From positions 1 through 64,000 of IMG/VR virus record IMGVR_UViG_3300031772_000001: a DNA stretch of 64,000 bases. One strand, written 5' to 3'. A model generated the notes under the pieces. It ran no database searches. It was not told the DNA's origin and worked only from the letters and a program-made list of their open reading frames with translations. This document shows positions 5,601 through 29,200 of this stretch, piece after piece; positions within the stretch are counted from its first letter, which is position 1; every line of letters starts with the position of its first letter. The translations under genes were made by a program, and so were the position numbers. The stretch is from a virus.

Positions 5601-5607
5601 GTCTTAC

Positions 5608-6177: not shown

Positions 6178-6192
6178 ACATTTTCCCTCTCA

Positions 6193-7641: not shown

Positions 7642-7650
7642 AGAATTCCT

Positions 7651-7854: not shown

Positions 7855-7857
7855 TCA

Positions 7858-8637: not shown

Positions 8638-8788
8638 CCCTAGTTATCCTTCCGATAGCTAATAAAACTACCTGCTCAAGCAATGGATTCTTGCTTAAAC
8701 AGGATGAACAAGTGTAAACAGAATTCACTAACACCGGACCAACATCAACACTCTTTCTACAAAACTGACATTTAATACTTGGCATATC

Positions 8789-9533: not shown

Positions 9534-9545
9534 AACCTTCCAATC

Positions 9546-12384: not shown

Positions 12385-13701
12385 TTAAAACTCAATTCCA
12401 TTTTTACGGGCATTTTCTACTACTTCCAAAATCTCGTCCACAGAGTCTATGTTTGACCCAACACGGTAACCTTTAACCAAACCACTATTTTCTTTTATCT
12501 TACTAATACATTCCTCAACAGTATCACCTAAAACAATCATAAACCCAACAGGATCAGTTGGTCCTGTCCCAGGTATCACATAATCAAGTCCGTTTACCCG
12601 ACACCTCATCTTCAATTTAACAATTTTTCTTATTGTCTCATCTTCAAAGTATATAGGATTCCAAACAAGCTCAGAGGAATTAGTAAATACTGCTACCTGC
12701 ATGGCATATTTACTTCTGTACTTTGGCTCTGTAACAATTCCCTTTGAACCATACCAAATAATCTCCGCAAGGTTCTCCACCCACTCACACTGAATCTCAG
12801 AATTTGGAGAACCACAACGACAAGTACAATCTATCAGGTAATTATTTCCATCTTCACCCATTCTAACCTCAGTAGCAAACCACCCCCTATACCCATAATC
12901 GGAAAAGACAGGCTTCAACTTGTCCATACTTTCCTTCATGGACTCATGCAGCTTATCATAAGAAACATGCGTCGTTATGTAAGCCTTATCCTTTATCTCA
13001 AAACCCATACCCATCTGTGAAGCATACTCACCATCTACCACAAAAGCATCAACACCACACTCAACTTTTGACTTTATAGGAGACTCAAGTATGTAATCAA
13101 CCTTACCATCTAACTTACGAGCAACCCCAAGATCAGACGCAACTTTCAATAAGAAATCCTCTGACTTTTTATGACTCTCTATGTGGTGTGTCTCAAAAAG
13201 ACCCCTCCACCACGACACCTTCAAGTATAGGTCTGAATTTCCATTCTTTATATGGTCAACAACATCGTCAAAATTAGTAAAATACTCTGCTTCAGATACA
13301 GGCAACCCTATTTTCTTGAATACCTGTTCTCTTGTCTCTATTCGGAGTAGTTCTAACTTCTCTCCATCACGACTCCCCCAAACCCGCTTCCCAAGGGAAA
13401 TAAGATGTTCCTGCAAATCCCCCATATACACATCTGGAAAAACAAACAAATCTACCTCATTAAAGTCATACCCCTTATCTGGACACTTGTAAAACATCTG
13501 ATCAATAACAGTAATTCCAGACAACCCCTCTCCAATCATCGACTTTTTAACATCTGGAAATGAGGAGTAATTAGGAACCCAATAAAACACCTTACCAAAA
13601 TCCCTCGCCAACCTTTCAGCAACAAATGTAAAAACCCCTGTATCTACTACAAGAACTTTTTTGTCTTTAAGATTGTCCACCACTAAATCCTTATGTAACA
13701 A
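12385..13701 (-). CDS. ATP-grasp ligase, PurD (GAR synthetase)-like
   Basis: KLELLR...IGLPV...LYLKVS...ILESPI..VECGVD...GYRGWFATEVR...IDCTCRCGSP. Confidence 0.7.
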   Translation of the reverse strand: MLHKDLVVDNLKDKKVLVVDTGVFTFVAERLARDFGKVFYWVPNYSSFPDVKKSMIGEGLSGITVIDQMFYKCPDKGYDFNEVDLFVFPDVYMGDLQEHLISLGKRVWGSRDGEKLELLRIETREQVFKKIGLPVSEAEYFTNFDDVVDHIKNGNSDLYLKVSWWRGLFETHHIESHKKSEDFLLKVASDLGVARKLDGKVDYILESPIKSKVECGVDAFVVDGEYASQMGMGFEIKDKAYITTHVSYDKLHESMKESMDKLKPVFSDYGYRGWFATEVRMGEDGNNYLIDCTCRCGSPNSEIQCEWVENLAEIIWYGSKGIVTEPKYRSKYAMQVAVFTNSSELVWNPIYFEDETIRKIVKLKMRCRVNGLDYVIPGTGPTDPVGFMIVLGDTVEECISKIKENSGLVKGYRVGSNIDSVDEILEVVENARKNGIEF

Positions 13702-14233
13702 AGTAAGTAATTATCCTTTTCAATGCCTCACGAACCTTAACCAAACTCTCCATATCTAAGTTTATGTTGGCGTGATACTTGCCAACAACCGGAATACACA
13801 AACTAAAAACCCTACACCCTCTTTTACTCCAAACACACGACTCATCATCATCCACCGCTACAGGCTTATACTCGTACTGTAAATCCTCAGAATCCAAAAA
13901 ATCACAAAACTGCTTTATCGAAAGCTCATCCCAATTGTAGAAATTCTCAATAGAAAAGTCTTTTCCGTCTGACCTGCCCAAATCAATAACTATAACAACG
14001 TCATTCTTAGAAACAGAAGGAAGATCATCAACCCCAAACTCTTCGCCCTGAGAATGCACAACCTTCAAAGACCCACTCTTACACAACAACCTCAAAGCAG
14101 GATTATCATACACCGTCAAGTACGAAACCAAAACCCCAAGAAAATTATCCAAAAGACCTTGATGTACGCCGCCCTCAAACGTCAAATTTCCGTCATTACG
14201 AACCTTATCCAAATGAGCACTAAGAATAACCAT
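13691..14233 (-). CDS. Zn-dependent peptidase, M20/M28-like
   Basis: SAHLD...LLDNFLG...QGEEFG...VIDLG...YHA metal-ligand pattern; start at MVILSAHLD assumed. Confidence 0.65.
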   Translation of the reverse strand: MVILSAHLDKVRNDGNLTFEGGVHQGLLDNFLGVLVSYLTVYDNPALRLLCKSGSLKVVHSQGEEFGVDDLPSVSKNDVVIVIDLGRSDGKDFSIENFYNWDELSIKQFCDFLDSEDLQYEYKPVAVDDDESCVWSKRGCRVFSLCIPVVGKYHANINLDMESLVKVREALKRIITYFVT

Positions 14234-14260
14234 AGATACCTCCCATAACATTAGAAACTA

Positions 14261-14443
14261 TTAAGACTTATGAAGACCTTTAACAATCTTCAAAGACCCT
14301 GCTGGCAAAGACTTTACTGGATCAGAAGCAACAACATCCTTTTTATCTTTCTTTTCTTCCGCAACAACCTCTTTAAGTACAACTACAGGGGGTTGTTGCT
14401 CCTCTGGTAGACTCTTCTCGTATATCCTTGATAAGAGATTCAT
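14261..14443 (-). CDS. Small putative head-internal protein (N-terminal LLxxIYE motif)
   Basis: MNLLSRIYE. Confidence 0.65.
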   Translation of the reverse strand: MNLLSRIYEKSLPEEQQPPVVVLKEVVAEEKKDKKDVVASDPVKSLPAGSLKIVKGLHKS

Positions 14444-14457
14444 AGACTAAACTCCCA

Positions 14458-14991
14458 CTACTTCGAGTAGTAATCAGTTGCCCCTGTCCGCGTAGACTCC
14501 TTCTTACTCAACTCAAGACTCTTCACAACACCCATAGCCACATCATCACTCTCTGTCGTGAAAACTGCTCCCTCTTTATCGGCCCCACGCTTCCAGAGAG
14601 CATCTATACCCTTCGCTTCCATCTTAGCTTCAACATTAGTCAACCCTCGAAGATACCACACCTTATCCTGCTTGTAGACCTCAACAGGATTATTGCCTTG
14701 CTCATTGACCTGCTCTTTAGGCTTCTCCTTTGACTCCTCGTACATCTTAACCATCAAAACCCCCTTGAAAGATTCTGTCTTAGTTGGCATTGCCGCCGCC
14801 CCCAAAGACTTTTTCAAAACAGCAAGCGTCTTAGGATCTTCCTTATCCGGCTGCTCCAACTTTGTCATTATATTGGAAAGCAACTCAAAAGGAATACTAT
14901 CATCTGCCCTCTTCTGGGTCATTCTCTCAGTAACAACACTAAGCAACGTGTGAAGTACGTTATTCTCTTTTGGGGTCAGGGACACATTCAT
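14458..14991 (-). CDS. Putative head-internal protein (internal motif)
   Basis: KTESFKGVLMVKMYEE. Confidence 0.65.
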   Translation of the reverse strand: MNVSLTPKENNVLHTLLSVVTERMTQKRADDSIPFELLSNIMTKLEQPDKEDPKTLAVLKKSLGAAAMPTKTESFKGVLMVKMYEESKEKPKEQVNEQGNNPVEVYKQDKVWYLRGLTNVEAKMEAKGIDALWKRGADKEGAVFTTESDDVAMGVVKSLELSKKESTRTGATDYYSK

Positions 14992-15356
14992 TAGAAACCT
15001 CCGGGGTTATGTGATGCAGCATACGCCGCTGACGACCTCTTTGGTGACTGATCTAAGTTAGTATAGTCAAATTGAATATCCGGCTTCTTCTTTAGAATCT
15101 TCTTACTTTCTTTGGAATCATAAAACTCACCTGTGTCCGGCTGAGTGTCGTACATCTTCTGAAGCAACGACACGTCAACACCTTCGTTCTCAGACTTGTA
15201 CGCCAAGTTTGCTATTCGTATTTTCAGAATGTTCTTTCCATTTACTATAGGCTGTCCATGCACATCCTTACCAATTTCCTTAACAGTAACACGACGATTT
15301 TTGAACTTTCCAGTAAAAATCGTATCCCCTACCTCAATTGGAATAACTATGCTCAT
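14991..15356 (-). CDS. Putative head-internal protein (internal motif)
   Basis: ENEGVDVSLLQKMYD. Confidence 0.65.
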   Translation of the reverse strand: MSIVIPIEVGDTIFTGKFKNRRVTVKEIGKDVHGQPIVNGKNILKIRIANLAYKSENEGVDVSLLQKMYDTQPDTGEFYDSKESKKILKKKPDIQFDYTNLDQSPKRSSAAYAASHNPGGF

Positions 15357-15487
15357 AACTACTTCCACACTTACTGTTTTAGTTCTTGTGTAATATCAGA
15401 GTATCCATCTGATATTTTCCTCATACACTTAGCCAATGCCTTACTCTCCACACCTCTCTGATCTTCCCCCTCAGCAATCACCTTTAC

Positions 15488-16630
15488 TTGAGGTGTGTAC
15501 CCTATCCGGCCAAATGCCTATCCTCCACAGTTTATAGTGGACAGACTTTTCTGGCAGGGTTCTTTAGCCGCCCTGTGCAAAATGTTAATGGCTGCGTTAT
15601 AATCCGCGTCCATCTCCACTTTACAATCAATACACTTGTACCGCTCGCCCACACGAGACTCCTTGTGTATTGATCCACACACTGAACAAGTCTGGGAAGT
15701 GTAAGCTGGATTGACCTTTGTAAGAAGAACACCGTTCTCCTCACAAGTTCTCACCAGCTTACCTATTGCCGATAAATAGACCCAATACTGCAACTTGTTC
15801 ATAAACTTTGTCGAAATTCGATGATCCTTCTTAGAATTTCTTTTGACGTTCTTTAGGTCTTCTATAGCAAGACTGTTTACGTTTGACAGGTCTAACTCGT
15901 TCACAACTCGGTTAATTTCATTGTCCCGGAATCTCAAACTCTGCTTAAAATTCTTAGAGTTCCTTACCTTCTTTGATATGTCTGTACAAACTTGCTCAAT
16001 ATCGGTCCCTAAAAACTGACCATCGGAAGTTGAAAGCAATTTCTTGTAGCCAATATCAACTCCCAAAGACTTACCTGTAGATTTTATTACAGGTGCCTCT
16101 TTCTCAAAAGTCAAAAACACAAAATACTTGCCGGATTCGTCTTTGGTTAATTTGATGTTCTTCTTACGCTTCCAATCAGCATACTTCAAATAATGCTTGT
16201 GATACTTGATTGGTAAGTTTATTGTGACTGCTCGATGCTTACCATCCTGAAAATAGGGCAATCGAATATGAATAAACTCATCAAAATGACCATCTTCTTG
16301 TACTTCAATATCAAACATCCGGTCATCCAACGAGATTGAAGTATTTTGTATCTCTGGCTTTGATTTTTTCTGTTTCTTCTGATTGGACCTGATAATCTCA
16401 GATGCTTGCTTATATAAAATTTGTTTCCAAGCAGAATAAGTAAAAAGATTTGAAGGACAATCCTTAGAACTGAGAAACTTCTTCAGTGGAAGTTTCTTAT
16501 CCCAAATTTGATCTATATAAAACTGTAAGTCAACCTTATAGTCTTGAAATAACTGGTCTAATTGCTTAGACTTAGTACCAGTTTGATACTTCAAAATGTG
16601 TTTGGTTGATCTTAACATAATTATCTATGT
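15488..16630 (-). mobile_element. Solo IS200/IS605-family (IS1341-like) TnpB element
   Basis: Right end ends in TCAA (15491-15488); inferred left junction follows TTAT (16634-16631); removing it restores a short ORF; no tnpA in the window. Confidence 0.65.
15518..16618 (-). CDS. tnpB: RNA-guided endonuclease TnpB
   Basis: RuvC-I GVDIG, RuvC-II AIEDL, VNPAYTSQTCSVCG and CIDC zinc finger, RuvC-III DADYNAAINIL. Confidence 0.93.
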   Translation of the reverse strand: MLRSTKHILKYQTGTKSKQLDQLFQDYKVDLQFYIDQIWDKKLPLKKFLSSKDCPSNLFTYSAWKQILYKQASEIIRSNQKKQKKSKPEIQNTSISLDDRMFDIEVQEDGHFDEFIHIRLPYFQDGKHRAVTINLPIKYHKHYLKYADWKRKKNIKLTKDESGKYFVFLTFEKEAPVIKSTGKSLGVDIGYKKLLSTSDGQFLGTDIEQVCTDISKKVRNSKNFKQSLRFRDNEINRVVNELDLSNVNSLAIEDLKNVKRNSKKDHRISTKFMNKLQYWVYLSAIGKLVRTCEENGVLLTKVNPAYTSQTCSVCGSIHKESRVGERYKCIDCKVEMDADYNAAINILHRAAKEPCQKSLSTINCGG

Positions 16631-16655
16631 ATAATTTATCACAACACCCCTTACT

Positions 16656-17234
16656 TTAGTCCTTCAGCAAATCCTGAATTTCATCCTGAGAATGTCCAGC
16701 AGCCTTCATGTAATCCTGAATCTTCTTCTCAGACCAACCACCCTTATTCAACATGAACAAGTAAGCAGCCTTCAAGTCCATCCCACCCATAATATTCGCC
16801 GCCATCTTACTCATCTTCAAAGTCTTGAGCGCAATCTTCTTTTAATGCCCTTCAGGAACACCCTCTTCTACTTTACCTTCGGTAATCTTCAACTCTTTAA
16901 GAACTTTTGTCAAAATCTCCTGATACGCCTTCATTAAAGCCTTTGCCTGCGGCCCACCCTTCTTCATTATCTTATAAACTTCCATTGTAAATCTTAATTC
17001 TACATTTGCACCTCTACGCACACAATCAACTCTTGCATCACCAACCTTACTAAACAGCTTATCATATTTTGGCTCTTGTTGCTCATAATTTACATTATAC
17101 GCAATATCATCTTGAGGATTTACTTCTTCTGGTACACCTCTAATAACAGCACCAGCAAATCCCCAATCCGATTTCTTTACTTCTATTCCTTCACTTACCT
17201 TCCTGTTTTCATACATCTCTTCAAGTAAGCTCAT
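16656..17234 (-). pseudogene. Motif-bearing putative head protein split by an in-frame TAA at 16842-16844
   Basis: MSLLEEMYE...VPEGH*KKIALKTLKMSKMAANIMGGMDLK...DLLKD*; the frame stays open for 61 codons after the TAA. Confidence 0.55.
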
Positions 17235-17244
17235 AAACACACTC

Positions 17245-17502
17245 CTACATGTAAAGATGACCTAATAACTTCTTTGATTTCAATTCATAAATCCCAACAA
17301 ACCCTGTGTCCATTCCTTGAATATACTTAGCAAACTTCGTTATAAGATCATCAAAACTATCTGTAAAATCCCTTGTATGACCACGCTTTTCTTTGAACTC
17401 CTTTTCATCGTCAGGATCGTGTACTTCTTGTGATGCACCAATAAGAGCATACTTCTTCTTAGAAATTTCCTTCTCGTACATCTTGGTAAAAAGACTATCC
17501 AT
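17245..17502 (-). CDS. Putative head-internal protein
   Basis: MDSLFTKMYE. Confidence 0.7.
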   Translation of the reverse strand: MDSLFTKMYEKEISKKKYALIGASQEVHDPDDEKEFKEKRGHTRDFTDSFDDLITKFAKYIQGMDTGFVGIYELKSKKLLGHLYM

Positions 17503-17510
17503 AACAACTC

Positions 17511-17912
17511 CTATGACAAGTATGAATTTAATTCATAAGGCTTAGGTGCCTGACTGTTCTTGTAAATATCAAGAACCAAAACACTATTCTTAATCTCTGC
17601 ACAAGTAGGCGCATCCTTCCAAAGCCGCCGCACTAAGTCAATCCGCAACCGTACCGTTTCACCAGAAGACATCGCCCCATTAAACGTCCCTACCCACTTC
17701 TCATCACCAACCACAGGAACAAGACCCAACTCCTCTAACGCTGCCAACACAGTAGTCGTAATATCGCCCAAAGACTTATAATAAGACTCTTTTACAAGAT
17801 TAGAATACTGCCTACGAATCCGAGACGGAAGAGACTCAGACCCCTCTATATGGACAGTCTCACCACTGCCCATCAAGGACATGCCCTCGTACATTCGTGT
17901 AAGAAGACTCAC
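17511..17912 (-). CDS. Putative head-internal protein
   Basis: GTG start, (M)SLLTRMYE. Confidence 0.7.
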   Translation of the reverse strand: MSLLTRMYEGMSLMGSGETVHIEGSESLPSRIRRQYSNLVKESYYKSLGDITTTVLAALEELGLVPVVGDEKWVGTFNGAMSSGETVRLRIDLVRRLWKDAPTCAEIKNSVLVLDIYKNSQAPKPYELNSYLS

Positions 17913-18235
17913 TCTAAAACCTCTTTCCATTCAGAGTAAAGTAATGTTACCCCACTCTTCTCAACAGCACCAAAATCAATATCATCCCAATTCCGAATAT
18001 TAGCGTTTGGCCTTACTTTTTTAATAATCAACTTCCTTAACTCATTAGGAACCCCTCCTTGATTATTAAAAATTCGTATGTAAGGATCGGTTGTTATACT
18101 TCCAGAAATTTGTGCGGACCAAGAGTAACCACCAAAATTCTTCTTTAACCACTGCTTCAACTCCTTAGAAAAGTCAGTATAAACCTTCTTTTCTTTTGAA
18201 GAAACTTCCTCATACATCTGCTGAAGCAAGCTCAT
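17909..18235 (-). CDS. Putative head-internal protein
   Basis: MSLLQQMYEE. Confidence 0.7.
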   Translation of the reverse strand: MSLLQQMYEEVSSKEKKVYTDFSKELKQWLKKNFGGYSWSAQISGSITTDPYIRIFNNQGGVPNELRKLIIKKVRPNANIRNWDDIDFGAVEKSGVTLLYSEWKEVLE

Positions 18236-18236
18236 A

Positions 18237-18518
18237 TTATCTCCCGAAAACATTTTTACCCTTATACTGAAAGAACACTTCCATCTTATCTGTCAAGGTC
18301 TTGATATTGTCCTTGATTCTATCCTCTAAGTCTTTGGCAACAACCTTGGGATCTTCCTTTTGACGCTCAACACGATCCACAAACTCCTTCTCCCAATCCT
18401 TAGAGTTAGACGCTATTTTCTTTGAAATAGAAGCACCCGAAGGAAGCTCCAACACAACAACTGCCTTGTCCCTCTTAGGGAATGTGCTTACCTCATACAT
18501 CCTTTTCAAAAGAGCCAT
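18237..18518 (-). CDS. Putative head-internal protein
   Basis: MALLKRMYE. Confidence 0.7.
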   Translation of the reverse strand: MALLKRMYEVSTFPKRDKAVVVLELPSGASISKKIASNSKDWEKEFVDRVERQKEDPKVVAKDLEDRIKDNIKTLTDKMEVFFQYKGKNVFGR

Positions 18519-18520
18519 GA

Positions 18521-19072
18521 CTACACCTTACTTCTCTGAATCTTATTCAACCTATCATTCGACTTCTTAACCCTTTCAGCATCCCCGGACATCCTCGCCT
18601 TCACCACAGAAGCCCTCGCACGAGCAACTTTTTCAGATTTACTACTCACGGCTTCAATAACCCTACCACCCTTACCACGCTTCTTTTTCTTATACTCGGG
18701 GTCAATAGAATCTGTTGAAGGGTAATAAAACTGCTTTCCAGCAGAACCAACTGACCCCGCAGTAGTCAACTCATACATCGCCACAATCAATGGGAAAATG
18801 GATCTTTCGTTCTTTTCTCCTCTTGCCTTCTCAAAAGCAACCGGAGAGTAATCATGTGTCTTGAGCCATGACTTAGCCTCTGCCGGAGTAAACTTGTCTG
18901 CTGAGAACCTAATAGACGCTACCGTTGTCCTCCCACCCTTCTCACCCTTCTTTGCCCTTAGACCATACAGCACACTTATCCCCGGCTTAAAAGCATCCGT
19001 CTTCCAACGATAGCCCTTAAACTTCGTGTTATCTATCGTTGCTGAATGATAATTTACAAAACCACGAGGCAT
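18521..19072 (-). CDS. Putative head-associated protein (internal motif)
   Basis: SIRFSADKFTPAEAKSWLKTH domain; KNERSIFPLIVAMYE. Confidence 0.65.
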   Translation of the reverse strand: MPRGFVNYHSATIDNTKFKGYRWKTDAFKPGISVLYGLRAKKGEKGGRTTVASIRFSADKFTPAEAKSWLKTHDYSPVAFEKARGEKNERSIFPLIVAMYELTTAGSVGSAGKQFYYPSTDSIDPEYKKKKRGKGGRVIEAVSSKSEKVARARASVVKARMSGDAERVKKSNDRLNKIQRSKV

Positions 19073-19084
19073 GAAAACTCCTTC

Positions 19085-19390
19085 TTATGCGGGTATGATA
19101 TACCCTACCTTCTTCTTATCATCCCAAACTGCAACCTTCTCACCCACATTTGAAAGCATATAACACTTTTCCTCAGACTTTATTTCACCCTTATGAAACC
19201 GATCTAAGTCTTTCTTGGAATAAAAGCAATGTGACTCAGAAGCAGAGAAATACTTCTGCTTTTCAAGAAAGTCGTCAAACTTCTTTCTATCTGTAAACTT
19301 CACTACCTTAGAATTAGCTGAAAGAAGTTTTACAACATCAGGAATAATTGGATCAATGTAATCCTCATAAATCTTCACAAGTAAACCCAT
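19085..19390 (-). CDS. Putative head-internal protein
   Basis: MGLLVKIYE. Confidence 0.7.
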   Translation of the reverse strand: MGLLVKIYEDYIDPIIPDVVKLLSANSKVVKFTDRKKFDDFLEKQKYFSASESHCFYSKKDLDRFHKGEIKSEEKCYMLSNVGEKVAVWDDKKKVGYIIPA

Positions 19391-19402
19391 AACAACTCCT
19401 TC

Positions 19403-19855
19403 TTATTTCTCAATTATCTCGTACTTTCCAGACTTCTTCTCTTGATCCAACTTGTCTTTTGTAATAACCTTCTTAATTGACTTACCAGAAATCGGAAACA
19501 CATAAGTCACAGCATATTTACCGTCACTACGAGGTAAACTACTCACATAAAGAGTAGACTTCCCTGTAGGAACATCACCAAAACCTTCGTACATCTTGAC
19601 AAGTAATCCAGTATCAACTGCCTCTACCTTTTGAACTCTTGAATTCCAAAGCCTCAACTCGGACATTGGATTTTTAGGAATCTCTTTGAAAATATAATAC
19701 CACTCGGAACCAATCGCATCTGTTGTTACTCTGTCAACAGTAACAGGGGATTTATCCACAGCACGGGGAAATACTAACTTATCACCTTTCTTATACAACG
19801 GCTTCCCTTTTGGGGCTTCAACCATATTACCCCAAATATCCTTAATCTTCATCAA
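19403..19855 (-). CDS. Putative head-internal protein (internal motif)
   Basis: KVEAVDTGLLVKMYE. Confidence 0.65.
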   Translation of the reverse strand: MMKIKDIWGNMVEAPKGKPLYKKGDKLVFPRAVDKSPVTVDRVTTDAIGSEWYYIFKEIPKNPMSELRLWNSRVQKVEAVDTGLLVKMYEGFGDVPTGKSTLYVSSLPRSDGKYAVTYVFPISGKSIKKVITKDKLDQEKKSGKYEIIEK

Positions 19856-20196
19856 AACGCCCCGTGAATCTTAGCATAATCCTCTGGGGACAAAATCTTC
19901 TTTGCCTGATCCATTGCAACTATCATAAACTCTTCTCTGGCTCTTTTTGCACCCTCAGACAAGTGACCAAAATAATCAGAAATTGTCTCTATTGCGTCAA
20001 GAGCCTTCACCATCTTAGTATCTTTCAGGATCTCTTTTGCGAGAATCTTCAAGCTCTCGGTGTGCATATTCTGATCCGTTGCCTTCGCAATCTTTTTCAC
20101 AATAGCATCAAGATCCATGACCTTAGAACCAGACTTCACAGTCTCATCAACTACTTTCTTACTCTTTGTGTACATTTCTGCAAAAAGACCTGACAT
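19852..20196 (-). CDS. Putative head-internal protein
   Basis: MSGLFAEMYT...VVDE. Confidence 0.65.
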   Translation of the reverse strand: MSGLFAEMYTKSKKVVDETVKSGSKVMDLDAIVKKIAKATDQNMHTESLKILAKEILKDTKMVKALDAIETISDYFGHLSEGAKRAREEFMIVAMDQAKKILSPEDYAKIHGAF

Positions 20197-20221
20197 AGTT
20201 ACTCCTTTACTTATCCTTTTG

Positions 20222-20818
20222 TTATGCTATGGCAAGACCCCTTCGTGCCTGTCCATCTGCAAAAGCCTGTCGCATTTTTTCCAGTTTTCTCTTAGCATCC
20301 TCATAAGTCTTAGCCGCAAACGTAGACCTTGTTTTCTTATCTGTAAATGCAAATTCCTTTAGGTCTTCCCACCAACCATTAAACAAAACCCCAAGCCTAT
20401 CAGCTATACTCTGACCTTCTTTTTTCAAGTCATCAGGTAGCTGTTCTTCTGTGATAAAATGACAAGACTCAACTGTTGTCTTCCCGTAAGGTGCGTAAGC
20501 AGAAGACCCAACCCCTGACGCTGTAGGACTTGTACCTACAAAACCTCTCCGGTCACTCGTAGCACCTGAATAATCAAATCCAGCAACACTACCCTTCATC
20601 TGAAATCGTTTACCATCCCTGTAAGCCGATACTATCTTACCCTCTTTACCTTTTGCCGAAGACACCACATAAGTCCCATCTTGAAACTCATAAGTATACA
20701 CATCCTTAACAAATCCTGTACTTGACTCTTTTGCCTTAGCATCAGCATCCACTTTTCTCTTGAACCCTGTCAAGAAAAGTTCAGAACCAGATTCGTATAT
20801 GTCAACAAGTAAAGTCAT
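20222..20818 (-). CDS. Putative head-internal protein
   Basis: MTLLVDIYE. Confidence 0.7.
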   Translation of the reverse strand: MTLLVDIYESGSELFLTGFKRKVDADAKAKESSTGFVKDVYTYEFQDGTYVVSSAKGKEGKIVSAYRDGKRFQMKGSVAGFDYSGATSDRRGFVGTSPTASGVGSSAYAPYGKTTVESCHFITEEQLPDDLKKEGQSIADRLGVLFNGWWEDLKEFAFTDKKTRSTFAAKTYEDAKRKLEKMRQAFADGQARRGLAIA

Positions 20819-20819
20819 T

Positions 20820-21074
20820 TCAATTCTCATAAATACTAACCAAAAGACTTACAAAAGACTCGTCTTTTGGACCGTACATATTTCCATACAAAATCTTGTT
20901 GATTTCCCACCTCACAGCCTGTCCCCCCATACTACCAAGATCACCCTTGTCTGGTGCCTCCCCTTTTCTTCCTAACTTTTCCCACTGCCATCTTCGGGTT
21001 GCATAATCCTTTTTAGCAACATTTTTGATCCTACTAATGTACTTCAACATCTCTTTTTCTTTAGGCTCATGCAT
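20820..21074 (-). CDS. Putative head-internal protein (C-terminal motif)
   Basis: KDESFVSLLVSIYEN*. Confidence 0.65.
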   Translation of the reverse strand: MHEPKEKEMLKYISRIKNVAKKDYATRRWQWEKLGRKGEAPDKGDLGSMGGQAVRWEINKILYGNMYGPKDESFVSLLVSIYEN

Positions 21075-21092
21075 ACATCACCTCAACTTTTG

Positions 21093-21120
21093 AAAAGATG
21101 GGGGCACTTTCGTACCCCCC
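21093..21120 (-). terminator. Possible intrinsic terminator
   Basis: GGGGGTAC-GAAA-GTGCCCCC followed by ATCTTTT. Confidence 0.5.
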
Positions 21121-21134
21121 CACCCCCACCCAAC

Positions 21135-21338
21135 CTAATTGATCTTGACAACACTCTGCACAGCAAGAGCCGCCTGAAGTGTGTTCAAAGCACTCGAAAC
21201 ATCAGATGCCAAAGTCTGTACCCCACCAAGAGTAAGCGTGCTGATCGTAATTGACACAGCATCAACACCCACCGCTCCGGCATTCAGAATTTGAGGAACA
21301 TGTGCCTCTAAATCCTTACGCGATTCATACAAACTCAT
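21135..21338 (-). CDS. Small structural-like protein
   Basis: GGAGG RBS then MSLYES. Confidence 0.6.
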   Translation of the reverse strand: MSLYESRKDLEAHVPQILNAGAVGVDAVSITISTLTLGGVQTLASDVSSALNTLQAALAVQSVVKIN

Positions 21339-21378
21339 AACTACCTCCAAATTTGAAATTATTCCAGACACGAGAACA

Positions 21379-21771
21379 CTAAGAGGCAGGTATCTCTCCC
21401 CACTCTTTTGACTTCATCAAAGCATCCATAACAGAACGGGCCTTCTGGGAAAGTTCCGGGTTTTGCCTGGAATTCCAGCGTTCTATGTTGGAGATCGCTC
21501 TTGTCATTGCCGGTTTACCCTTTTTCTTTGCTATCTTGATAAAATGAGAAACAAGGTCTTTAACCGGCCACTCAGACCAAGAGTTTGCTGGCAACTTCGT
21601 GATACCCGGAAACTTCGCCTTCACCATAACCTTTTCAGAAAGAGTTAGCTCCTCAGAGACTTCAAACTGACCCCAAGCATCAACGAAGTCGTTAGCCGCT
21701 TCAAGAAGTTTCTTGATATAGCCTGACCCACAAGACTCTATCGCCTTTGATCTTTTTGAAAAATTCACCAT
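21379..21771 (-). CDS. Hypothetical head-region protein
   Basis: ORF with xxE sites (AIES, LLEA, TLSE). Confidence 0.6.
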   Translation of the reverse strand: MVNFSKRSKAIESCGSGYIKKLLEAANDFVDAWGQFEVSEELTLSEKVMVKAKFPGITKLPANSWSEWPVKDLVSHFIKIAKKKGKPAMTRAISNIERWNSRQNPELSQKARSVMDALMKSKEWGEIPAS

Positions 21772-21787
21772 AACTATTCTCTCCAAC

Positions 21788-21839
21788 TTGAAAAAAGGCT
21801 GTCAAGGAATATTCCCAAACCCTGACAGCCTTTTCCAAG
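21788..21839. terminator. Intrinsic terminator (possibly bidirectional)
   Basis: AAAAGGCTGTCA...TGACAGCCTTTT inverted repeat. Confidence 0.7.
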
Positions 21840-21858
21840 CACCCACCCCTTGTATCAC

Positions 21859-22392
21859 TTACTCGTCACCCTCATCATCGCCCTCATCATCACCCTCATC
21901 ATCTTCCGCTTCAGCATCAGAAGTCCACTCAACGTACTTATCCATCATCTCCACAAGAGCCTCTTCCGCTTCCTCTGTAGACTCCACAGTCACACCCTCG
22001 TCAACGTCATCACCATTGTTTGCATCAACGGCATAGACATCCATCGCACCATCATACGCCTCAATGATGATAGACACGTCTTCAGATTCATCAGAAGAAA
22101 GAACAAGAAAAGGCTCATCACTGTCATCACGGTCTGACACTGACCAGCCACTTTCCTTCGCCAAAGACTCAACAGTATCAAACCAAGCAGTCACGTCATC
22201 AGTCTCAAGCTGCTCACAAGCAGATGCAGTATCGCCCGATCCATCACCAGAATCATCACCAGAGTCATCACCACTTCCGGGGTCATCACCAGAAGGGTCT
22301 TCTACACCCTTCTTCTTTTTTCCTTTTGCTTCATCGAGGACAGCAACACCGCCTTGCTTTATGTCCTCATATATATCAATAAATACTGACAT
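21859..22392 (-). CDS. Highly acidic head-region protein
   Basis: MSVFIDIYE; Asp/Glu-rich tracts. Confidence 0.7.
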   Translation of the reverse strand: MSVFIDIYEDIKQGGVAVLDEAKGKKKKGVEDPSGDDPGSGDDSGDDSGDGSGDTASACEQLETDDVTAWFDTVESLAKESGWSVSDRDDSDEPFLVLSSDESEDVSIIIEAYDGAMDVYAVDANNGDDVDEGVTVESTEEAEEALVEMMDKYVEWTSDAEAEDDEGDDEGDDEGDE

Positions 22393-22417
22393 AGTGCCTC
22401 CAAGATACAGGTACGAG

Positions 22418-22576
22418 TTACTTTGTGGTACTCACTTTGTCTGCTCCTGATTTAGCGTGCAAAGAGACAGAAGCAGAAGGAGACTTCTTTTCTCCCATAA
22501 TCCACGAATCTTCGTCTGACTTGGGATTACCCTTCCGGCTTGCAATAATCTTTGCACGTTTTGTTAAAAAACTCAC
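22418..22576 (-). CDS. 52-aa hypothetical protein below the ORF-track cutoff
   Basis: AGGGAG RBS, GTG start, (M)SFLTKRAKIIASRKG...STTK*. Confidence 0.5.
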   Translation of the reverse strand: MSFLTKRAKIIASRKGNPKSDEDSWIMGEKKSPSASVSLHAKSGADKVSTTK

Positions 22577-22593
22577 GCAATCTCCCTACAAGC

Positions 22594-22637
22594 AAAAAAG
22601 GGAAGGCTTGGGCTTATTAAAACCCAAAACCTTCCCT
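22594..22637 (-). terminator. Intrinsic terminator
   Basis: AGGGAAGGTTTTGGG...CCCAAGCCTTCCCTTTTTT. Confidence 0.7.
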
Positions 22638-22646
22638 AATACCCGA

Positions 22647-23297
22647 CTACTGCTTGTCTTCAGTACCCTCAGTACCCTCGTCACCTTCACCCTCAAGGTC
22701 TTCCGAAACCTCATCAAGATACTCACAATACGAATCAAGGTACTCCTGATCCCGTTCGTCAATCTTACCCTCATGTGCTATCACAGACTCAACAACCTGC
22801 ATCACAGGAGCAATGTCGTTGAGAACAATCGAATACAGTTCGTCATTCTCAAGACCCTCTGCCACACACTCATTCAGATGTGTCATCAGAGATTCCTTAA
22901 TCTCCTCATAACTCTCGTCTGTGAGCTTCGGATTCTTCTCATCAGAGAGAACCGTCTCAAGAACTGCACGAACATTATCAATAGCACTCTCACCATACCG
23001 ACGCTTACGGGTCTTCAGAGCACGCTTCGCACGAAGACGAAGTTTCGACTTCGGAGTACGCCGCATTGCCTTCTTCATAGCACGGGCAAGAGCACGACTC
23101 TTGTACACACCATGCGAACGACGACGAGCCGCAAGACGACGCTTCCGACGCTCCGACGCAGTAGGCTTACGCGAAGCCTCATCAAGCCCATCACTACCCT
23201 CAAGAACAGGTTCCGGGGCAGCAGGAGCAGCAGGCTTTGACCCTCGACCCGCCATGATCGACTCAAGGATCGCCGCTTCGGTAGACTTTCCACTCAT
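22647..23297 (-). CDS. Prohead core protein-like (T4 gp68-like basic tract plus acidic domain)
   Basis: ERRKRRLAARRR...RLRAKRALKTRKRR basic tract flanked by xxE sites; lies downstream of the portal gene. Confidence 0.55.
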   Translation of the reverse strand: MSGKSTEAAILESIMAGRGSKPAAPAAPEPVLEGSDGLDEASRKPTASERRKRRLAARRRSHGVYKSRALARAMKKAMRRTPKSKLRLRAKRALKTRKRRYGESAIDNVRAVLETVLSDEKNPKLTDESYEEIKESLMTHLNECVAEGLENDELYSIVLNDIAPVMQVVESVIAHEGKIDERDQEYLDSYCEYLDEVSEDLEGEGDEGTEGTEDKQ

Positions 23298-23329
23298 AAC
23301 AGTACCCTCCATGTAAAAAGTTTTGAAAA

Positions 23330-26275
23330 TTACTTTCGATCTTCAGGAGACAAGAACACACCCTTCAAGAAATTCACAGCACTTACCTTCTTTCCTTCAA
23401 AAAGATTACCCATCTTCTCATAGGTTAGTGACCTGAAAACATTGAGAGACGGAACCCTTCTGAGGTCATTCTCTTTGACCACCCTACTGAGGCAGGAACT
23501 AAAAGCAAGAACCGCTTTGTTGAAGTCCATATTTTCCGGCAAAAGTTTTCGGATATTTCTATGCAAATCAGTCCGCTTCAAAACCTCCGCTCGAAGATTA
23601 CCCAAGATTTCCTCAGACAAAACCTTCTTTGCCACACCCTCATAATACTCTGGTGTTGCCTTCTCATAAGCATCAATTGGTGTCAAACTTCGATCATACA
23701 TCTCAGTCATAAAAGCAGAAATCTCTTCGTGATCCTTATGAGACAGGGACAAATTCTTTGCCCTCATCACATTCAAAGCAGAATAGAACTCGGGGTAAAT
23801 TTCAACAAACCGATCATACAAACCCTCACAAACCTTGCTGTCTGTCAACTTATCAAACTCAACAAGCAACGGGCTTATAGCACAAAGAGTAGCATCATCA
23901 AGTTTTGAAAACTCCTGCAAAGCATCTGTATCAACCTCTAAGTTTTCTGAATACTTTTTGATGTTTGCTACAATCACACCTTTATCTGCATCCCCAAACT
24001 TATACACAAGAACATTCTCTACAATAGCAGGAATATTAGAGTTTCCTAACAAAGAATCCGCTATCTCTATACCCCTAAACTCAACACCAAAACGCTTACA
24101 AGATTCAGTCAGCTTCTCAATTCGCTTCTCTTGATTATCCTCGTTTATATGGGAGTTGTTCAAAAGATGAAAAACTTCCACAATTGCGGAATCATAAGAC
24201 AAGCTCTCTTCCACTTCCAAAGCAGAGAAACCGCATCGGCCACACTTACCACCAAACCCTTCACAAGCACACCTTGGGCAAATCATACTCTTTACCCCCA
24301 CCCCAGAGGAAAGAACCTGCTCAAGATCGTACCCACAATCCGTACAGTGCTTTGGATAACGCCCACGATACTTCGGAATCAACATCCCGCACGAAGGACA
24401 CTGGCCCTTGTACTTGATCTTGTCAAAAGCAGTCTGCATCCCCGGAGTCATGCCTTGCTCATTTGTCTGCTCATCCGTCTGCTCCCCAAATCTCTTAGCA
24501 ACCTTTTCTATTGCATTCAACATCCTCTCTTCTTTCTTTGCACACTCAGCACAGAAAAGACCAAACGCCTTATTAGAAAGTTCACCTTCTTTACCACACC
24601 TCGCACATTTACCTGTTTTCTTAGAAGATCCTTCTTCTATCTGCTCCCAATTCATATTATTTGCGAGATACTGAGCATGAAGATCATTTACTACCTTCAT
24701 ATCCTTAATACCAAACTGTTGTGAAAACTGAGTAAGAGTCTTACCAGTATCTTTCAAGTCAGAATGATCCTTAAACCAATCAAACATCTTTCGTGTGATA
24801 TTCACACCAGACTCATTTACCTGCTCATTCTGGTCAATAACACTGCCTTTCTTATGAAAAGGAGGATACGTCACCAGAGCATCACCTTCTTTGTTGACCA
24901 TGTAATAACCAGCCAACGTACTATCTTTTACCCTACTCTCATATCCCATCTTCTTAGCAAGTGCATCAAACTCTTTCAAAGTAATATCTGAGGCAATTAC
25001 CTTCGCTTTTCCAGTATCAGTTGTTTCCTTGTTTACCAAAGCAACTGACACTTTAAGAGTTACTTCTACTACCTGCTCATCAAACTTTTTATCCATCGGT
25101 ATAGCTGCATCAGTCCTTACCCCGGAAGGGGGCTTTTCTCTTTTCGATATAAACCAACTATCTCTGTCCTTCCCCTGCCACGCAATAACACCCTTTGGCA
25201 ATTTACCAGCATACGATTTTACAGCCTTGTATGTCACCAAATATGTCCCACCATCCATGATATTCTTTATCATCTTCTCTAAATCATCTGTATCCTCAAT
25301 TATTACATCCTCTTTTATCTCTGACATCTTCTTTACATTCGTAGCCCAATCAGGCAACTCACCTCTCACCAAATACCAAGTCTTATCCCCGTTCTTTTCT
25401 TGAAACGCATGAGTATCTTGGGGAACCTTACCAATAAACTGTTTCAGGTCTTTCTCACTTCCGATCTTAACAATAGCACTCTCTAAAGACACCAAAATAC
25501 CTTGCAAGTCTGTACTAGCTACCCGCTCTACCACTACCTGCTCACTAACTCCCTCTTTCTTAGTCTGTGATTTAAGCACGTCTTTCAAAAAATCTATAGC
25601 CTTAACAGCATACCCATCAAATATCTTTCTTGTTCCTTTGAAAAGAGCTACCTTTCCAACCTTATCAATATTGCTTCTCTCAAGAGTAGCCTTGAAAGCT
25701 GTATTGTACTCAGTAATGTACTTATCAAGCTCTTCCTCGTCTACCTTACTCTCACCCACCACAGAAGCCTCCGGCTGTACCAAGTGCTCCCCACACTCAG
25801 GACAAAACTTAGGATACCTGCCTGGGTAAGTAGGAACCACAAACCCGCAACTGTCACACTTCTTCCAAACATTACCCTTAGAAACACTTCCGTAAACAGC
25901 CTTTCCCATACCCGGAGTCATCTGCTCATTCAATTTATCCAAAACAACACTGGCAACAGTACAGATTGTTGCTGCTTCCTTTGTTGTAATTACTGATTCC
26001 ATGTACTTACGAAAAAGAGAATCAAGAAATATTCCCAAATCAGAAATTCCTGATATGGAATCCTTATCTACACCCTTGACTTTTTTCATTAAGTCAAGTA
26101 TACTCTTAGAAACTTCTTTTGCTTGGGATTTTACATCGGAAGGGAAGTCAACAACAAAATCTCCAAGAGCCTTCAGGAACTCGGCTCCCTTTTCGAGATC
26201 AGAAATTGACTTCACATACTGCGAAGGAACCGACTTAGAAACGGCATCTTCAAATGCATTCTGTTGACCTAACAT
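23330..26275 (-). CDS. Large modular head-region protein with several zinc ribbons
   Basis: Duplicated MTPGM...CxxCG...YxGRYPKxCxxCG module; many xxE linkers; start taken at MLGQQ. Confidence 0.7.
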   Translation of the reverse strand: MLGQQNAFEDAVSKSVPSQYVKSISDLEKGAEFLKALGDFVVDFPSDVKSQAKEVSKSILDLMKKVKGVDKDSISGISDLGIFLDSLFRKYMESVITTKEAATICTVASVVLDKLNEQMTPGMGKAVYGSVSKGNVWKKCDSCGFVVPTYPGRYPKFCPECGEHLVQPEASVVGESKVDEEELDKYITEYNTAFKATLERSNIDKVGKVALFKGTRKIFDGYAVKAIDFLKDVLKSQTKKEGVSEQVVVERVASTDLQGILVSLESAIVKIGSEKDLKQFIGKVPQDTHAFQEKNGDKTWYLVRGELPDWATNVKKMSEIKEDVIIEDTDDLEKMIKNIMDGGTYLVTYKAVKSYAGKLPKGVIAWQGKDRDSWFISKREKPPSGVRTDAAIPMDKKFDEQVVEVTLKVSVALVNKETTDTGKAKVIASDITLKEFDALAKKMGYESRVKDSTLAGYYMVNKEGDALVTYPPFHKKGSVIDQNEQVNESGVNITRKMFDWFKDHSDLKDTGKTLTQFSQQFGIKDMKVVNDLHAQYLANNMNWEQIEEGSSKKTGKCARCGKEGELSNKAFGLFCAECAKKEERMLNAIEKVAKRFGEQTDEQTNEQGMTPGMQTAFDKIKYKGQCPSCGMLIPKYRGRYPKHCTDCGYDLEQVLSSGVGVKSMICPRCACEGFGGKCGRCGFSALEVEESLSYDSAIVEVFHLLNNSHINEDNQEKRIEKLTESCKRFGVEFRGIEIADSLLGNSNIPAIVENVLVYKFGDADKGVIVANIKKYSENLEVDTDALQEFSKLDDATLCAISPLLVEFDKLTDSKVCEGLYDRFVEIYPEFYSALNVMRAKNLSLSHKDHEEISAFMTEMYDRSLTPIDAYEKATPEYYEGVAKKVLSEEILGNLRAEVLKRTDLHRNIRKLLPENMDFNKAVLAFSSCLSRVVKENDLRRVPSLNVFRSLTYEKMGNLFEGKKVSAVNFLKGVFLSPEDRK

Positions 26276-29200
26276 GGAGTAATTTTGCCCTTTCCTGTAT
26301 TGCAGGAACTCGAAGGTCACTGTGAGAAGGTTTATTGACCCTCTCTTTAATCCAAAACCCAGAACCCACTAAATTTCGGATTTTTTCGGCTCTTACTTTG
26401 GTAGTACCGCTACCGTTGGAGCCATCACCTTCTTCTTGAAGTATATCAAGTTCTGACTCAACACCCTCTTCTTCACCTTCACCCTCCTCGCCACTCCCAC
26501 CTTTTCCTCCACCCTTACCCTCCTCATCCCCTTCATCATCGCCGCTTGGCTTTCCCTTCCTTCTTGGAACCGGAACAGAACCACGAGAACCAAGAGCATC
26601 AGACTTCGAGGAAGAAGACTTATTTCCTAACAACTTATCAATATCAAGATCGGGAAATGCAAATATCTGCTTGAATATGTACTCAACATACATCTTCTTG
26701 TTGATAATTCCTTCCATCTCCCCAGACAAACCAAGCATAGACGTAGCAATACCAATCTTTCTTTCCGTGTACTCCAAACGAGAATCTTCCTCTGCCGAAG
26801 AAATTGGAACCATCCCAATAGACAAATCTTCAACACTTATATCCTGACTGTACTTGTAAGACAGGTGAATTTGAAATAGCCGATACATCCCCTCAATAAG
26901 TGCCCTCTGCACCTTCTTGACCATACGAGCATATCGAATATCCAAACGAGTAAGAGTCTGTGAACCAGAAAACCCCGGTATACTTTCAGAATTGTGAACA
27001 AACACACCACAAGAGAGAGAGAAGTTGTGGTTGTCACTTTCAACAGTTAAATCATAAGCATCTTCAACAACATCAAGATATTCTACATTTACAACTCTAT
27101 GATTGTAACAATTTGCTGCCATCTTCCTTTCAGAAATCATCTTACTATTTGCTTTAGCTCGACAAACCCTCTGGCATCTAACACAGCAAAACCTTGGTGT
27201 CTGTAAGTATGAAGAAATGTCGTTGTAAGGAACCTTCTTCATAAACATCTTCCCACACTCATCACAACAAATCTCAAACTCCTGTGGGTGATAATCACCC
27301 CACCTACCCTGAACCATCTTACCCTTCCAAGAAGCAAACTCAGGACTATCAGGGGAAATAGTCTTCATATAATTAAAGGATTTTCTTCTCCCCTCCTGAA
27401 TAGCCTTAATTATTCCCTGCCTTGCTTTCTCTCTATACTCAGGATTAGCCATCGGGTTATTCTCACCCTTCTGGTAATCCCTGTTAATACCCATCAAAGA
27501 CTTTGATACTTTTGCACCAAACCCATCCGGCTTCTTTCTCCCTTTTCCCAAAACAGACATTCTTTTGGAATACTCAAGCCTCTCCTCTGAAGACATAGCC
27601 TCCCGTCTCTTCCTTGCTGAAACACTTCCCAAAGACCTGCCCATATCTAAAACACTTGCCATCTCTGGATGATACTTAACAAAATGCTCTCGCCTATTCT
27701 CACAAATTGCCAGATTTAAGGCATCATTATTACTCTTGACTTTATCTCTATGATGAACAACTTGCTCAGAAGATAGAACCTTCCCACCATTCAACAAATC
27801 TTCTGCAACAAGACGGTGTACCCGAACATAATGCCGATCCTTATTATCAATAATTCCATAATATCCCTTCTCTGCCCCAGACAACTCAAAGTAATATAGA
27901 GGCATTAAAGATTCCCCAGAGACAAGTTTCTCTGCCTCTTTGTAAGACCCATCTCTTAACATACACCTATGGTCAGGGGTAACGTCAAAATATTCTCCGT
28001 TATCAAGATGCACCCTAACATACTTCGCATTAAGTCGCGTCTTGTTAATATCAGAGATATTCGTGGCGTGAACCCTGCCATCCTTATCACTTGTAAAAAT
28101 TGTCTTGCCCCTGAAATATTCCTTATTCTCAAACATCTCCCTAATAGTAGGTGTAGTTCCATCACATAACCGAATACCAGTGTTTCCTCTCAAACACATT
28201 CCTAAAAATGCGCCGGGGATGCGGATAGCTGCAAGTAGCTTATCCCGAATATACTCAATATCAACTATGTCTTTTATGTTTACATCACCACCAACCGTCT
28301 CAACTCGCATATCCCCTTTTGTACCTGTATAGGGAATAAAAACCTCGTCATTATACTGCAAAGGATTGTACTTCATACGATAGAAATTCACAGGAATATC
28401 TATTGCCTTCTTCTGCATAAATTTCTGCTCAAGATCCTGAATCAAATCCCTACGCTCATCCTTTGTCATACCCTCAGTATTTACATAAAACACACGTATA
28501 AGGGGAGATCGGGCAAGACGAGCAAGAGCAAGAGAGACTTCAAGCAAATTCAGGATACGATAAATCAATCTTGCGTTCTGCAAAATTGACGTACCATACA
28601 TCGAAGTAAGAATCTTTTCAACTAACTTACGCTCACCCTTCGGAACATCCCCACGTCTATTTGCATCAATCATCCTACGGGAAGGAGATTTCTGAGGATC
28701 ACCGCTATCAACATCCCAAGTTGACTTATCAAAAGGTTTTGTATCCTTTGTCTTATCTCCATACTCAGCAGGCTCATCCTCGGCCTCCCCTGTCTTATCC
28801 TCCCCCTCCACAGACTTTTGCATTTCATCTTCCCACATCTTGACCTTTACAGACTCAAAATTGGGTTTGAAGTTGTTGATGAAATGCACATACCCTGAAG
28901 AGTCCATTATCTCTTCCTTACGGGCAGAAATATCCTTCTTGATAAAACAAGCAAGTTTTCCGTCTATGTCAATACGATAAACACTTTTTGGATGTTCCGA
29001 CTCACGAATATTAGTGATCCCTTCACCCTTCTTAGGGTAAACCCTTAACATGAAATCACCATACTTCGCAATATTATAGGTCCACCCCCAAACCTTATTC
29101 TCAAAATCAATTGTTGAAAGAAACTCTTGAAGTTCGTGGCCGTACTTATGCTTTCCACCAATCCATAAAGTACCATTCATTTCATGGGAGTATTGTGTAG

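Follow-up and report, generated by a model that had tools for sequence, protein, structure and literature searches.

The 64,000-nucleotide window analyzed here comprises bases 1–64000 of the viral record IMGVR_UViG_3300031772_000001 (G000), a complete genome of 167,660 bp with direct terminal repeats. About five in six of its genes (223 of our own 269 gene calls) are located on the minus strand. Between positions 14261 and 22392, a minus-strand cluster of small genes encodes proteins that share a short peptide of the form L-[L/F]-x-[charged]-[M/I]-Y-E, hereafter referred to as the tag. A previous sequence-only reading had listed 15 such heptapeptides on about 16 unrelated small proteins and had proposed that they form a capsid-targeting and cleavage signal. 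Six-frame translation recovered all 15 heptapeptides in minus (i.e. coding) frames between 14417 and 22386, and none of them in any plus frame of the window. A short form, M-S-L-Y-E (21324–21338), brings the number of carriers in the interval to 16. In ten of these the tag is N-terminal, beginning within two or three residues of the start codon; in four it is internal, in one C-terminal (within the last eight residues of the protein), and one has the short form.

Further copies were detected elsewhere in the genome. These are found in (i) a P-loop kinase (38162–38182); (ii) four N-termini encoded at genome positions 142.3–144.8 kb; and (iii) the start of a 1157-residue protein adjoining the prohead protease (M-R-K-L-Y-E). 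A second tag cluster is located about 5 kb downstream of the capsid gene. Altogether, G000 has 15 N-terminal copies, with a tag length of 9–10 residues at the extreme N-terminus. Outside the window, a protein of 248 residues (genome 65536–66282, minus strand) starts with M-S-L-M-S-Y-G-Y-E, possibly a diverged copy.

Motif counts were obtained from our own gene calls for the whole G000 genome (223 minus-strand genes, 48,217 residues). The strict motif L[LF]xx[MI]YE was observed 13 times, compared with 0.10 occurrences predicted by composition; when each protein was shuffled 500 times, the mean was 0.08 and no shuffle yielded more than one. For a looser form of the motif, 21 occurrences were observed versus about four expected. 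A sequence logo was derived from 38 copies, pooled from G000 and G001, the only close relative of G000 in IMG/VR. Position 1 was L in 33 copies, position 2 was L or F in 34, and position 4 was charged in 34, with position 3 being variable. Position 5 (P3) was M in 21 copies, I in 14, and L in three. Position 6 was Y in all 38 and position 7 was E in 35, while the remaining three copies end in D, T, or G yet retain the rest of the tag. The hydrophobic positions 1, 2, 5, and 6 show the pattern that would be expected of one face of a short amphipathic helix.

At the nucleotide level, the copies are much less alike. The 21-nt tag sequences had a mean identity of 62%, and the longest exact match between any two copies, flanks included, was 13 nt. 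Across the five conserved tag codons, first and second positions were 86% identical, whereas third positions were only 47% identical. Leu at position 1 is encoded by five different codons, Tyr by TAC and TAT (10 each), and Glu by GAG (13) and GAA (5). The difference between codon positions and the mixed codon use therefore indicate selection on the peptide and not on the DNA.

Judged by sequence, the carriers are unrelated to each other, as had been supposed: an all-against-all BLASTP comparison returned no pair at E ≤ 1e-3 and, with the tags masked, no pair below E = 0.05. None of the carriers in the interval matched a Pfam or PHROG family. The one carrier with a family assignment lies outside the interval; it is the P-loop kinase (AAA_33 and Zeta_toxin; 250 residues, 37445–38197, minus strand), which has the tag at residues 6–12 (M-A-V-K-A-LLRDMYE; ILADIYE in the G001 orthologue). 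The protein bodies downstream of the tag are mostly basic, 10 of 16 having a pI of 8–10.4. Extreme net charges of about −50 and about +41 were noted for one carrier each. A further tagged protein of 344 residues was found only in G000 and G001 among 5.8 billion proteins. The suggestion that the set includes anti-defence factors gained no support; the proteins match no known family.

Comparison with G001 (156.6 kb) revealed a turnover of these genes. The capsid protein of G001 is 94% identical to that of G000 and its prohead protease 69%, and the flanking head genes are 63–94% identical. G001 contains the same cluster, with 17 tag copies across the record. Nevertheless, no G001 counterpart exists for seven of the tagged genes in the main G000 cluster or for the three small ones in the second cluster; conversely, G001 has genes of its own. 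About half of the putative cargo thus differs between the two phages while the tag stays.

The genes of the cluster, all on the minus strand, are described here in the direction of transcription. The first open reading frame (ORF; 21859–22392, 177 residues) starts with M-S-VFIDIYE and encodes a very acidic protein, the one with a net charge of about −50. Runs of G-D-D-S-G-D-D repeats were noted in this protein and in the 1157-residue protein (genome 152620–156093, minus strand), whose G001 orthologue has G-E-G-G repeats in their place. ORF 21859–22392 is followed by an untagged gene without a family match (21379–21786, 135 residues; G001 orthologue 71% identical) and by the carrier of the short form (21135–21338, 67 residues; G001 orthologue 55% identical). 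The ORF at 20820–21074 (84 residues, without G001 counterpart) has the C-terminal copy LLVSIYE-N-stop (20826–20846), which lies 13 nt before the tag of the next gene. That gene (20222–20818, 198 residues, M-T-LLVDIYE) equals two genes in G001, the second with its own tag, and nucleotide similarity to G001 begins at 20809, at a tag; an ESM Atlas search with its product gave no usable lead. The product of ORF 19852–20196 (114 residues) starts with M-S-G-LFAEMYT, ending in Thr instead of Glu. Its G001 orthologue has a different leader, which ends in L-N-E. This orthologue is one of two neighboring G001 genes (18467–19500, minus strand; loci L010/L018) that share the leader M-S-x-Q-S-D-L-F-L-x-E-A-V-S-K, ending L-x-E; in the other, L-L-x-x-L-Y-E follows right after the leader.

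In ORF 19403–19855 (150 residues), an internal LLVKMYE (19586–19606) joins two modules. Nucleotide similarity to G001 stops at 19617 and resumes at 19594, flanking this tag; at this point G001 carries an additional cassette, tagged and about 200 bp long, so that one G000 protein corresponds to two G001 genes. A structure prediction for this protein (mean predicted local distance difference test score 55) was confident only for the C-terminal module and uninformative for the tag region. ORF 19085–19390 (101 residues, M-G-LLVKIYE) has no G001 counterpart. ORF 18521–19072 (183 residues) encodes an N-terminal domain (residues 5–90) followed by a Glu, five residues, LIVAMYE (18770–18790), and a basic tail. 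Four further N-terminally tagged ORFs lack G001 counterparts as well, namely 18237–18518 (93 residues, M-A-LLKRMYE), 17909–18235 (108 residues, M-S-LLQQMYE), 17511–17912 (133 residues, GTG start, M-S-LLTRMYE), and 17245–17502 (85 residues, M-D-S-LFTKMYE). ORF 16842–17234 (130 residues) starts with M-S-LLEEMYE; similarity to G001 begins at 17207, directly after the tag, at a place where an additional module of about 63 residues is present in G001.

A TnpB-like gene (Cas12f1-like_TNB; 15518–16618, minus strand) is inserted in the cluster but absent from G001 and is not part of the tag system; the 150-nt gap after it could hold its guide RNA. Beyond the insertion, ORF 14991–15368 (125 residues) contains an internal LLQKMYD (15147–15167), which ends in Asp, and a search for longer relatives of this protein found none. 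ORF 14458–14991 (177 residues) contains an internal LMVKMYE (14737–14757) with a Glu at −6, and an in-frame ATG and an AAGGGGG ribosome site are found just ahead of this tag. Similarity to G001 ends at 14735 and resumes at 14718, and G001 has about 257 bp absent from G000 directly after the tag. The last carrier, ORF 14261–14443 (60 residues, without G001 counterpart), starts with M-N-LLSRIYE (tag DNA 14417–14437). As the homology breakpoints between the two phages fall at tags, cassettes appear to have been gained, lost, or fused there.

All five non-N-terminal copies of G000 are preceded by a Glu, at −6 in four and at −5 in the fifth, which agrees with the spacing of 4–6 residues reported in the sequence-only reading. 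The three internal copies of G001 all have it at −6. For both phages together, a Glu at −6 was found for seven of eight internal copies versus 5 of 27 leaders of N-terminal copies (Fisher p = 0.0008); as control, the untranslated leaders of the N-terminal copies were virtually translated in frame. In both phages, the translated sequence of the internal copies is conserved, and these copies sit at junctions where G001 has separate or differently joined genes. Some of them retain an in-frame ribosome site and start codon. Upstream of the tag at 15167, an in-frame GAAGGTG...GTG is closely similar to what precedes the N-terminal copy at 19384, except that GTG takes the place of ATG, and in the G001 orthologue of the copy at 19606, ATG-AGT still directly precedes the tag. 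We also considered that the upstream Glu is a mere relic of a translated ribosome site; this fits some copies (e.g. 15167) but not the −6 position in seven of eight. Judging from these sequences, in-frame fusion of cassettes best explains the internal copies, some of which may be internal translation starts. The idea of a portable tag that works independently of its position is thus sustained only in part: a T4-style tag fits, but position-independence is doubtful, with the internal copies located at fused-gene junctions.

The cluster belongs to a tightly packed run of genes on one strand, headed by the portal gene and extending down to 12385. The portal (26250–29483, minus strand) belongs to the T4 gp20 family (Portal_T4/PF07230, E = 3e-39), and its gene is interrupted by an intein with an HNH domain. 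The cluster had been described as lying downstream of portal and prohead-core genes; this holds for the portal, while the prohead-core genes are unconfirmed because the two genes between portal and cluster match no family. These encode (i) a protein of 981 or 996 residues with several zinc ribbons (23330–26320, minus strand), directly downstream of the portal; and (ii) an untagged, charged protein of 221 residues (22647–23312, minus strand), whose N-terminus holds I-L-E. The latter ORF was omitted from the greedy gene list and fills most of an apparent gap of 937 nt. Gaps between genes from 12385 to 22392 do not exceed 87 nt. Two genes directly downstream of the cluster (12385–14251, minus strand; 432 and 186 residues) have neither a family nor a G001 counterpart, and G001 has a different gene of 214 residues at the corresponding end of its cluster. 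Only two matches to the T4 late promoter (TATAAATA) were found; as both lie within genes, they provide no promoter evidence for late expression. An Rfam search of 13500–23500 returned no family. Upstream of the portal, an 841-residue protein (29773–32298, minus strand) also carries an intein and is probably the large terminase, as judged from the gene order in Listeria phage LIS04, without direct comparison. Two adjacent tRNA-Leu genes (anticodons TAA and CAA) were noted at 33535–33709 of the window (minus strand).

The other head genes are located at genome positions 149.6–152.6 kb, away from the main tag cluster. The capsid protein (149622–151055) belongs to the Gp23 family (PF07068, E = 6e-45) and matches solved structures of T4 gp23; its N-terminal part aligns weakly with the gp23 propeptide. 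Its nearest cultured relatives, at 38% identity, are the capsid proteins of Listeria phage LIS04 and Bacillus phage SP-15 (genus Thornevirus). Directly upstream of the capsid gene, a protein of 502 residues is encoded (151071–152579), of which residues 1–190 constitute a Peptidase_S77 domain (T4 gp21 family; PF03420, 49 bits, over the cut-off) that aligns to the solved T4 gp21 (5JBL). His83 and Ser139 are invariant in 11 relatives (alignment A2), and by these sequence features the gene encodes an intact prohead protease. The C-terminal 270 residues look like a coiled-coil scaffold. In G001, a family search gave no S77 match, although tblastn identified the 69% identical protein mentioned above. 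Within the protease family, the N-terminus (residues 1–15 of alignment A2) reads M-x-L-L-x-E-D-Y-F or a near variant (I-L-I-D-D-Y-Y in G000). It resembles the cargo tag L-L-x-x-M-Y-E and may itself be a targeting peptide of the same kind. A MoxR AAA+/VWA-metallopeptidase cassette is found upstream of the protease.

A link to the phage head that does not depend on the tag was provided by the N-terminal domain of ORF 18521–19072, which precedes the internal tag. This domain has 667 relatives at E ≤ 0.001, mostly located N-terminally in proteins of many sizes. Of ten relatives sampled, five join it to a head-morphogenesis domain: four prohead proteases or protease-like domains (two Peptidase_S78, i.e. 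Caudovirus prohead protease, one Mu I protease-scaffold, and one DUF2213) and one capsid domain. A sixth is a polyvalent protein of 1822 residues that contains ADP-ribosyltransferase, GNAT, and DdrB-ParB domains; for this class of phage protein, packaging in the capsid has been predicted (PMC5512222). An Atlas structure search with the domain pointed in the same direction. These similarities would place at least one carrier among the head-interior proteins by a tag-independent route. Only this ORF was found to carry a folded head-associated domain, the other carriers having the peptide only (the MuF domain was not searched for).

To find more distant relatives, IMG/VR was scanned with a profile for the protease, which yielded 42 loci. 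One of them, G002, is a 52-kb fragment (31% complete, 30% guanine plus cytosine [GC]) with a capsid protein 52% identical to that of G000. It contains, as a single case, an ORF of 64 residues starting M-D-LLTKMYE at a position syntenic with the second tag cluster of G000, right behind the counterparts of the genes preceding that cluster; a relative of the protease was found by tblastn, while the PF03420 family search gave no match. In G003 (L042, IMGVR_UViG_3300017990_000110; 12 kb, 54% GC, capsid protein 35% identical), small ORFs near the protease and capsid genes (1500–9800, plus strand) start with another common peptide, A-x-[E/D]-L-I-x-x-Y-L-x-E. Six of them fit this pattern strictly and two more loosely; P3 is L, M, V, or I, and every one of the ORFs lies on the coding strand. 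In G004, a T4-like fragment from an unrelated record, three ORFs start with M-L-S-F-K-Q-F followed by L-N-E or L-I-E, and one starts with M-K-T-Y-K-Q. Of the four records with shared tags, three (G000, G003, and G004) encode an S77 protease, the exception being G002. Shared N-terminal tags ending in hydrophobic-x-Glu thus recur beside S77 proteases, with sequences specific to each lineage.

Other searches were negative. In Listeria phage LIS04, inspection of the genes between about 19 kb upstream and 8 kb downstream of the capsid gene revealed no shared N-terminal tag. A megablast search of the tag cluster against cultured phages gave no match, and two scans of metagenome contigs yielded no relatives. 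A degenerate DNA pattern for M-S-L-L-x-x-M-Y-E matched 19 stretches in IMG/VR, which by a rough, uncomputed estimate is about the number expected by chance; only G001 had several copies.

From context and comparison, we consider it probable (roughly 0.65) that L-[L/F]-x-[charged]-[M/I]-Y-E serves this lineage as its own signal for capsid targeting and cleavage, comparable to that on the internal proteins of T4. By analogy, it would most likely be the functional counterpart of their 10-residue N-terminal propeptide. The earlier proposal of a T4-style targeting peptide cut after Glu agrees with the head genes, the S77 protease, the length, position, and ending of the tag, the turnover of cargo, and the distinct hydrophobic-x-Glu tags of other S77-protease phages, from which we infer binding, packaging, cleavage, and delivery. 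In this model, the tagged genes would be expressed together with the head genes. The hydrophobic face of the tag (positions 1, 2, 5, and 6) would bind to part of the prohead core during assembly, most likely to the coiled-coil scaffold half of the 502-residue protease-scaffold protein. After assembly of the shell, Peptidase_S77 would cut after the Glu of [M/I]-Y-E; the cargo, now free in the head, would then be released along with the DNA when the phage infects a cell. Loading without cutting is predicted for the copies that end in Asp, Thr, or Gly. Internal and C-terminal copies would have arisen by in-frame joining of tagged cassettes, where the tag and the Glu six residues upstream would form a cuttable joint.

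Several observations weigh against this interpretation. The phage is uncultured. The tag has no sequence similarity to that of T4, and Met at P3 lies outside the consensus of T4 gp21 (L/I-x-E; PMC9026906). Hydrophobic-x-Glu tripeptides are common (561 in the G000 proteome), so the ending of the tag alone proves little. About 47 kb across the genome ends separates the tag cluster from the protease and capsid genes, and the maturation site of the capsid protein itself is a guess only (M-D-E at residue 66). The upstream Glu of the internal copies mostly has Lys at P3, unlike known sites of the protease family. Finally, there are only two near relatives, and the breakpoint evidence comes from one genome pair. 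A complex prediction for the protease-scaffold (A2) with the first 40 residues of ORF 18237–18518 gave a score of 0.00; as it was run without controls, no conclusion was drawn.

Whether the joints are cut on both sides is more doubtful. The tag and the Glu six residues upstream could form a doubly cuttable joint, by which modules would be strung, swapped, inserted, and deleted in frame, a reading that we regard as tentative and on balance not the likelier one. If so, cassettes would be exchanged at the protein level, and polyprotein cargo would be loaded via one tag and cut in the head; the tag may then imitate the protease's own N-terminus (M-x-L-L-x-E-D-Y-F).

Alternatively, the tag might be the recognition peptide of a different machine, such as a modifying enzyme (as with the leaders of ribosomally synthesized and post-translationally modified peptides), a chaperone, or the MoxR AAA+/VWA-metallopeptidase cassette. 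In favor of such a machine, the 1157-residue protein next to the protease itself starts with M-R-K-L-Y-E. No radical S-adenosylmethionine (PF04055) match was found in the complete G000 genome, however, and the single one in G001 lies about 43 kb from its cluster. With the genes at 12385–14251 lacking a G001 counterpart, no candidate enzyme travels with the cluster, whereas an S77 protease accompanies the shared tags in three of four records. We therefore consider a different machine improbable.

It is slightly less probable still that the tag is only a propeptide removed by the protease, for example to keep cargo inactive or as a processing mark, with any loading brought about by other features. 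Such a role would account for the hydrophobic-x-Glu ending and the presence of the S77 protease, and there are precedents in the head proteins of giant phages, whose N-terminal propeptides are cut after Glu with no shown targeting role (PMC10052503). But positions 1, 2, 5, and 6 are stricter than a three-residue cleavage site needs, and the hydrophobic positions are retained even in the three copies that have lost the Glu. Moreover, a prohead protease acts inside the shell, so its substrate must already be there. Least probable is a functionless peptide spread as a by-product, either with a portable gene start (ribosome site, ATG, and first nine codons) or through recombination at microhomologies: the breakpoints at tags, the ribosome-site and start-codon relics of internal copies, and the C-terminal copy 13 nt upstream of the next tag would all be explained, but not the nearly randomized third codon positions with fixed amino acids, the absence of exact matches above 13 nt, the persistence of the tag in a relative with 30% GC, or the conservation of internal copies as translated sequence in both phages.

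If the capsid-targeting interpretation is correct, the set of proteins carried in the head can be read straight from the sequence, amounting to at least 20 proteins in G000. It would include a P-loop kinase of the Zeta-toxin family and proteins with net charges of about −50 and +41. The loading principle of T4 would then reach deep into the T4 superfamily, each lineage having its own hydrophobic-x-Glu tag, and proteins injected by metagenomic phages could be searched for with a simple rule. The presence of tags where modules meet points to a way in which these sets are quickly rebuilt. A short tag of this new kind, combined with the matching protease, might also help to load foreign proteins into phage capsids, a use to which the T4 tag is already put.

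In T4, propeptides of 10–19 residues at the N-terminus bring internal proteins into the scaffolding core, and the first 10 residues of IPIII suffice for loading, also of foreign proteins (PMC9026906). Targeting is affected by residues 4 and 7, processing by residues 8 and 10; with Asp at position 10, the protein is still loaded but no longer cut (PMC9026906). This capsid-targeting sequence (CTS) is present on IPI, IPII, IPIII, and Alt and is removed by gp21 (Mullaney and Black 1996, as reviewed in PMC9026906 and PMC3012670). Alt is trimmed at its C-terminus also (PMC9026906), and this processing at both ends is a precedent for the non-N-terminal tags of G000. As with the CTS, the G000 tag is a short peptide of similar length and N-terminal position on unrelated, mostly basic small proteins; it ends in hydrophobic-x-Glu, its hydrophobic part stays conserved in the three copies without the terminal Glu, the head genes are of the gp21, gp23, and gp20 families, and the cargo is hypervariable while the tag is kept. 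The sequences themselves are dissimilar: the T4 tag reads M-K-T-Y-Q-E-F-I-A-E, and a T4-like tag was seen only in G004. Further differences are the number of carriers (about 20 versus three or four in T4), Met instead of Leu or Ile as the commonest P3 residue, the additional internal and C-terminal copies at module junctions, and the fusion of the protease to a coiled-coil scaffold-like half.

Other systems share single features with the cluster. T-even phages have varied internal proteins with only the targeting sequence in common (PMC3012670), encoded at variable loci (Repoila et al. 1994, cited in PMC3012670) that resemble the plastic G000 locus with its conserved peptide; those phages are, however, close to T4 and use the T4 tag, whereas the G000 lineage is deep-branching. 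In the giant phages phiKZ and SPN3US, many proteins inside the head are processed after Glu by gp175/gp245, which belong to the same protease superfamily (PMC10052503, PMC5694885). Their propeptides, however, are mostly long (20–254 residues) and do not constitute one shared portable tag, and their cleavage motif is described as different. We assume the latter to be small-x-Glu. MuF-fused toxins and polyvalent proteins likewise combine variable effector modules with a constant capsid-loading module (PMC5576092, PMC5512222), and the N-terminal domain of ORF 18521–19072 occurs in one polyvalent protein; these systems use whole folded domains instead of a peptide of 7–10 residues, without prohead-protease cleavage. 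The MuF toxin paper does not mention Zeta-type kinases and was hence not used to support the kinase as cargo. In concept, the proposed tag follows the principle of T4 capsid targeting, known since the 1990s, and would not be a new system; the novelty lies in the sequence of the tag, in the deep branching of the lineage, in the number of carriers, and in the clear coincidence of tags with sites of cassette gain, loss, or fusion.

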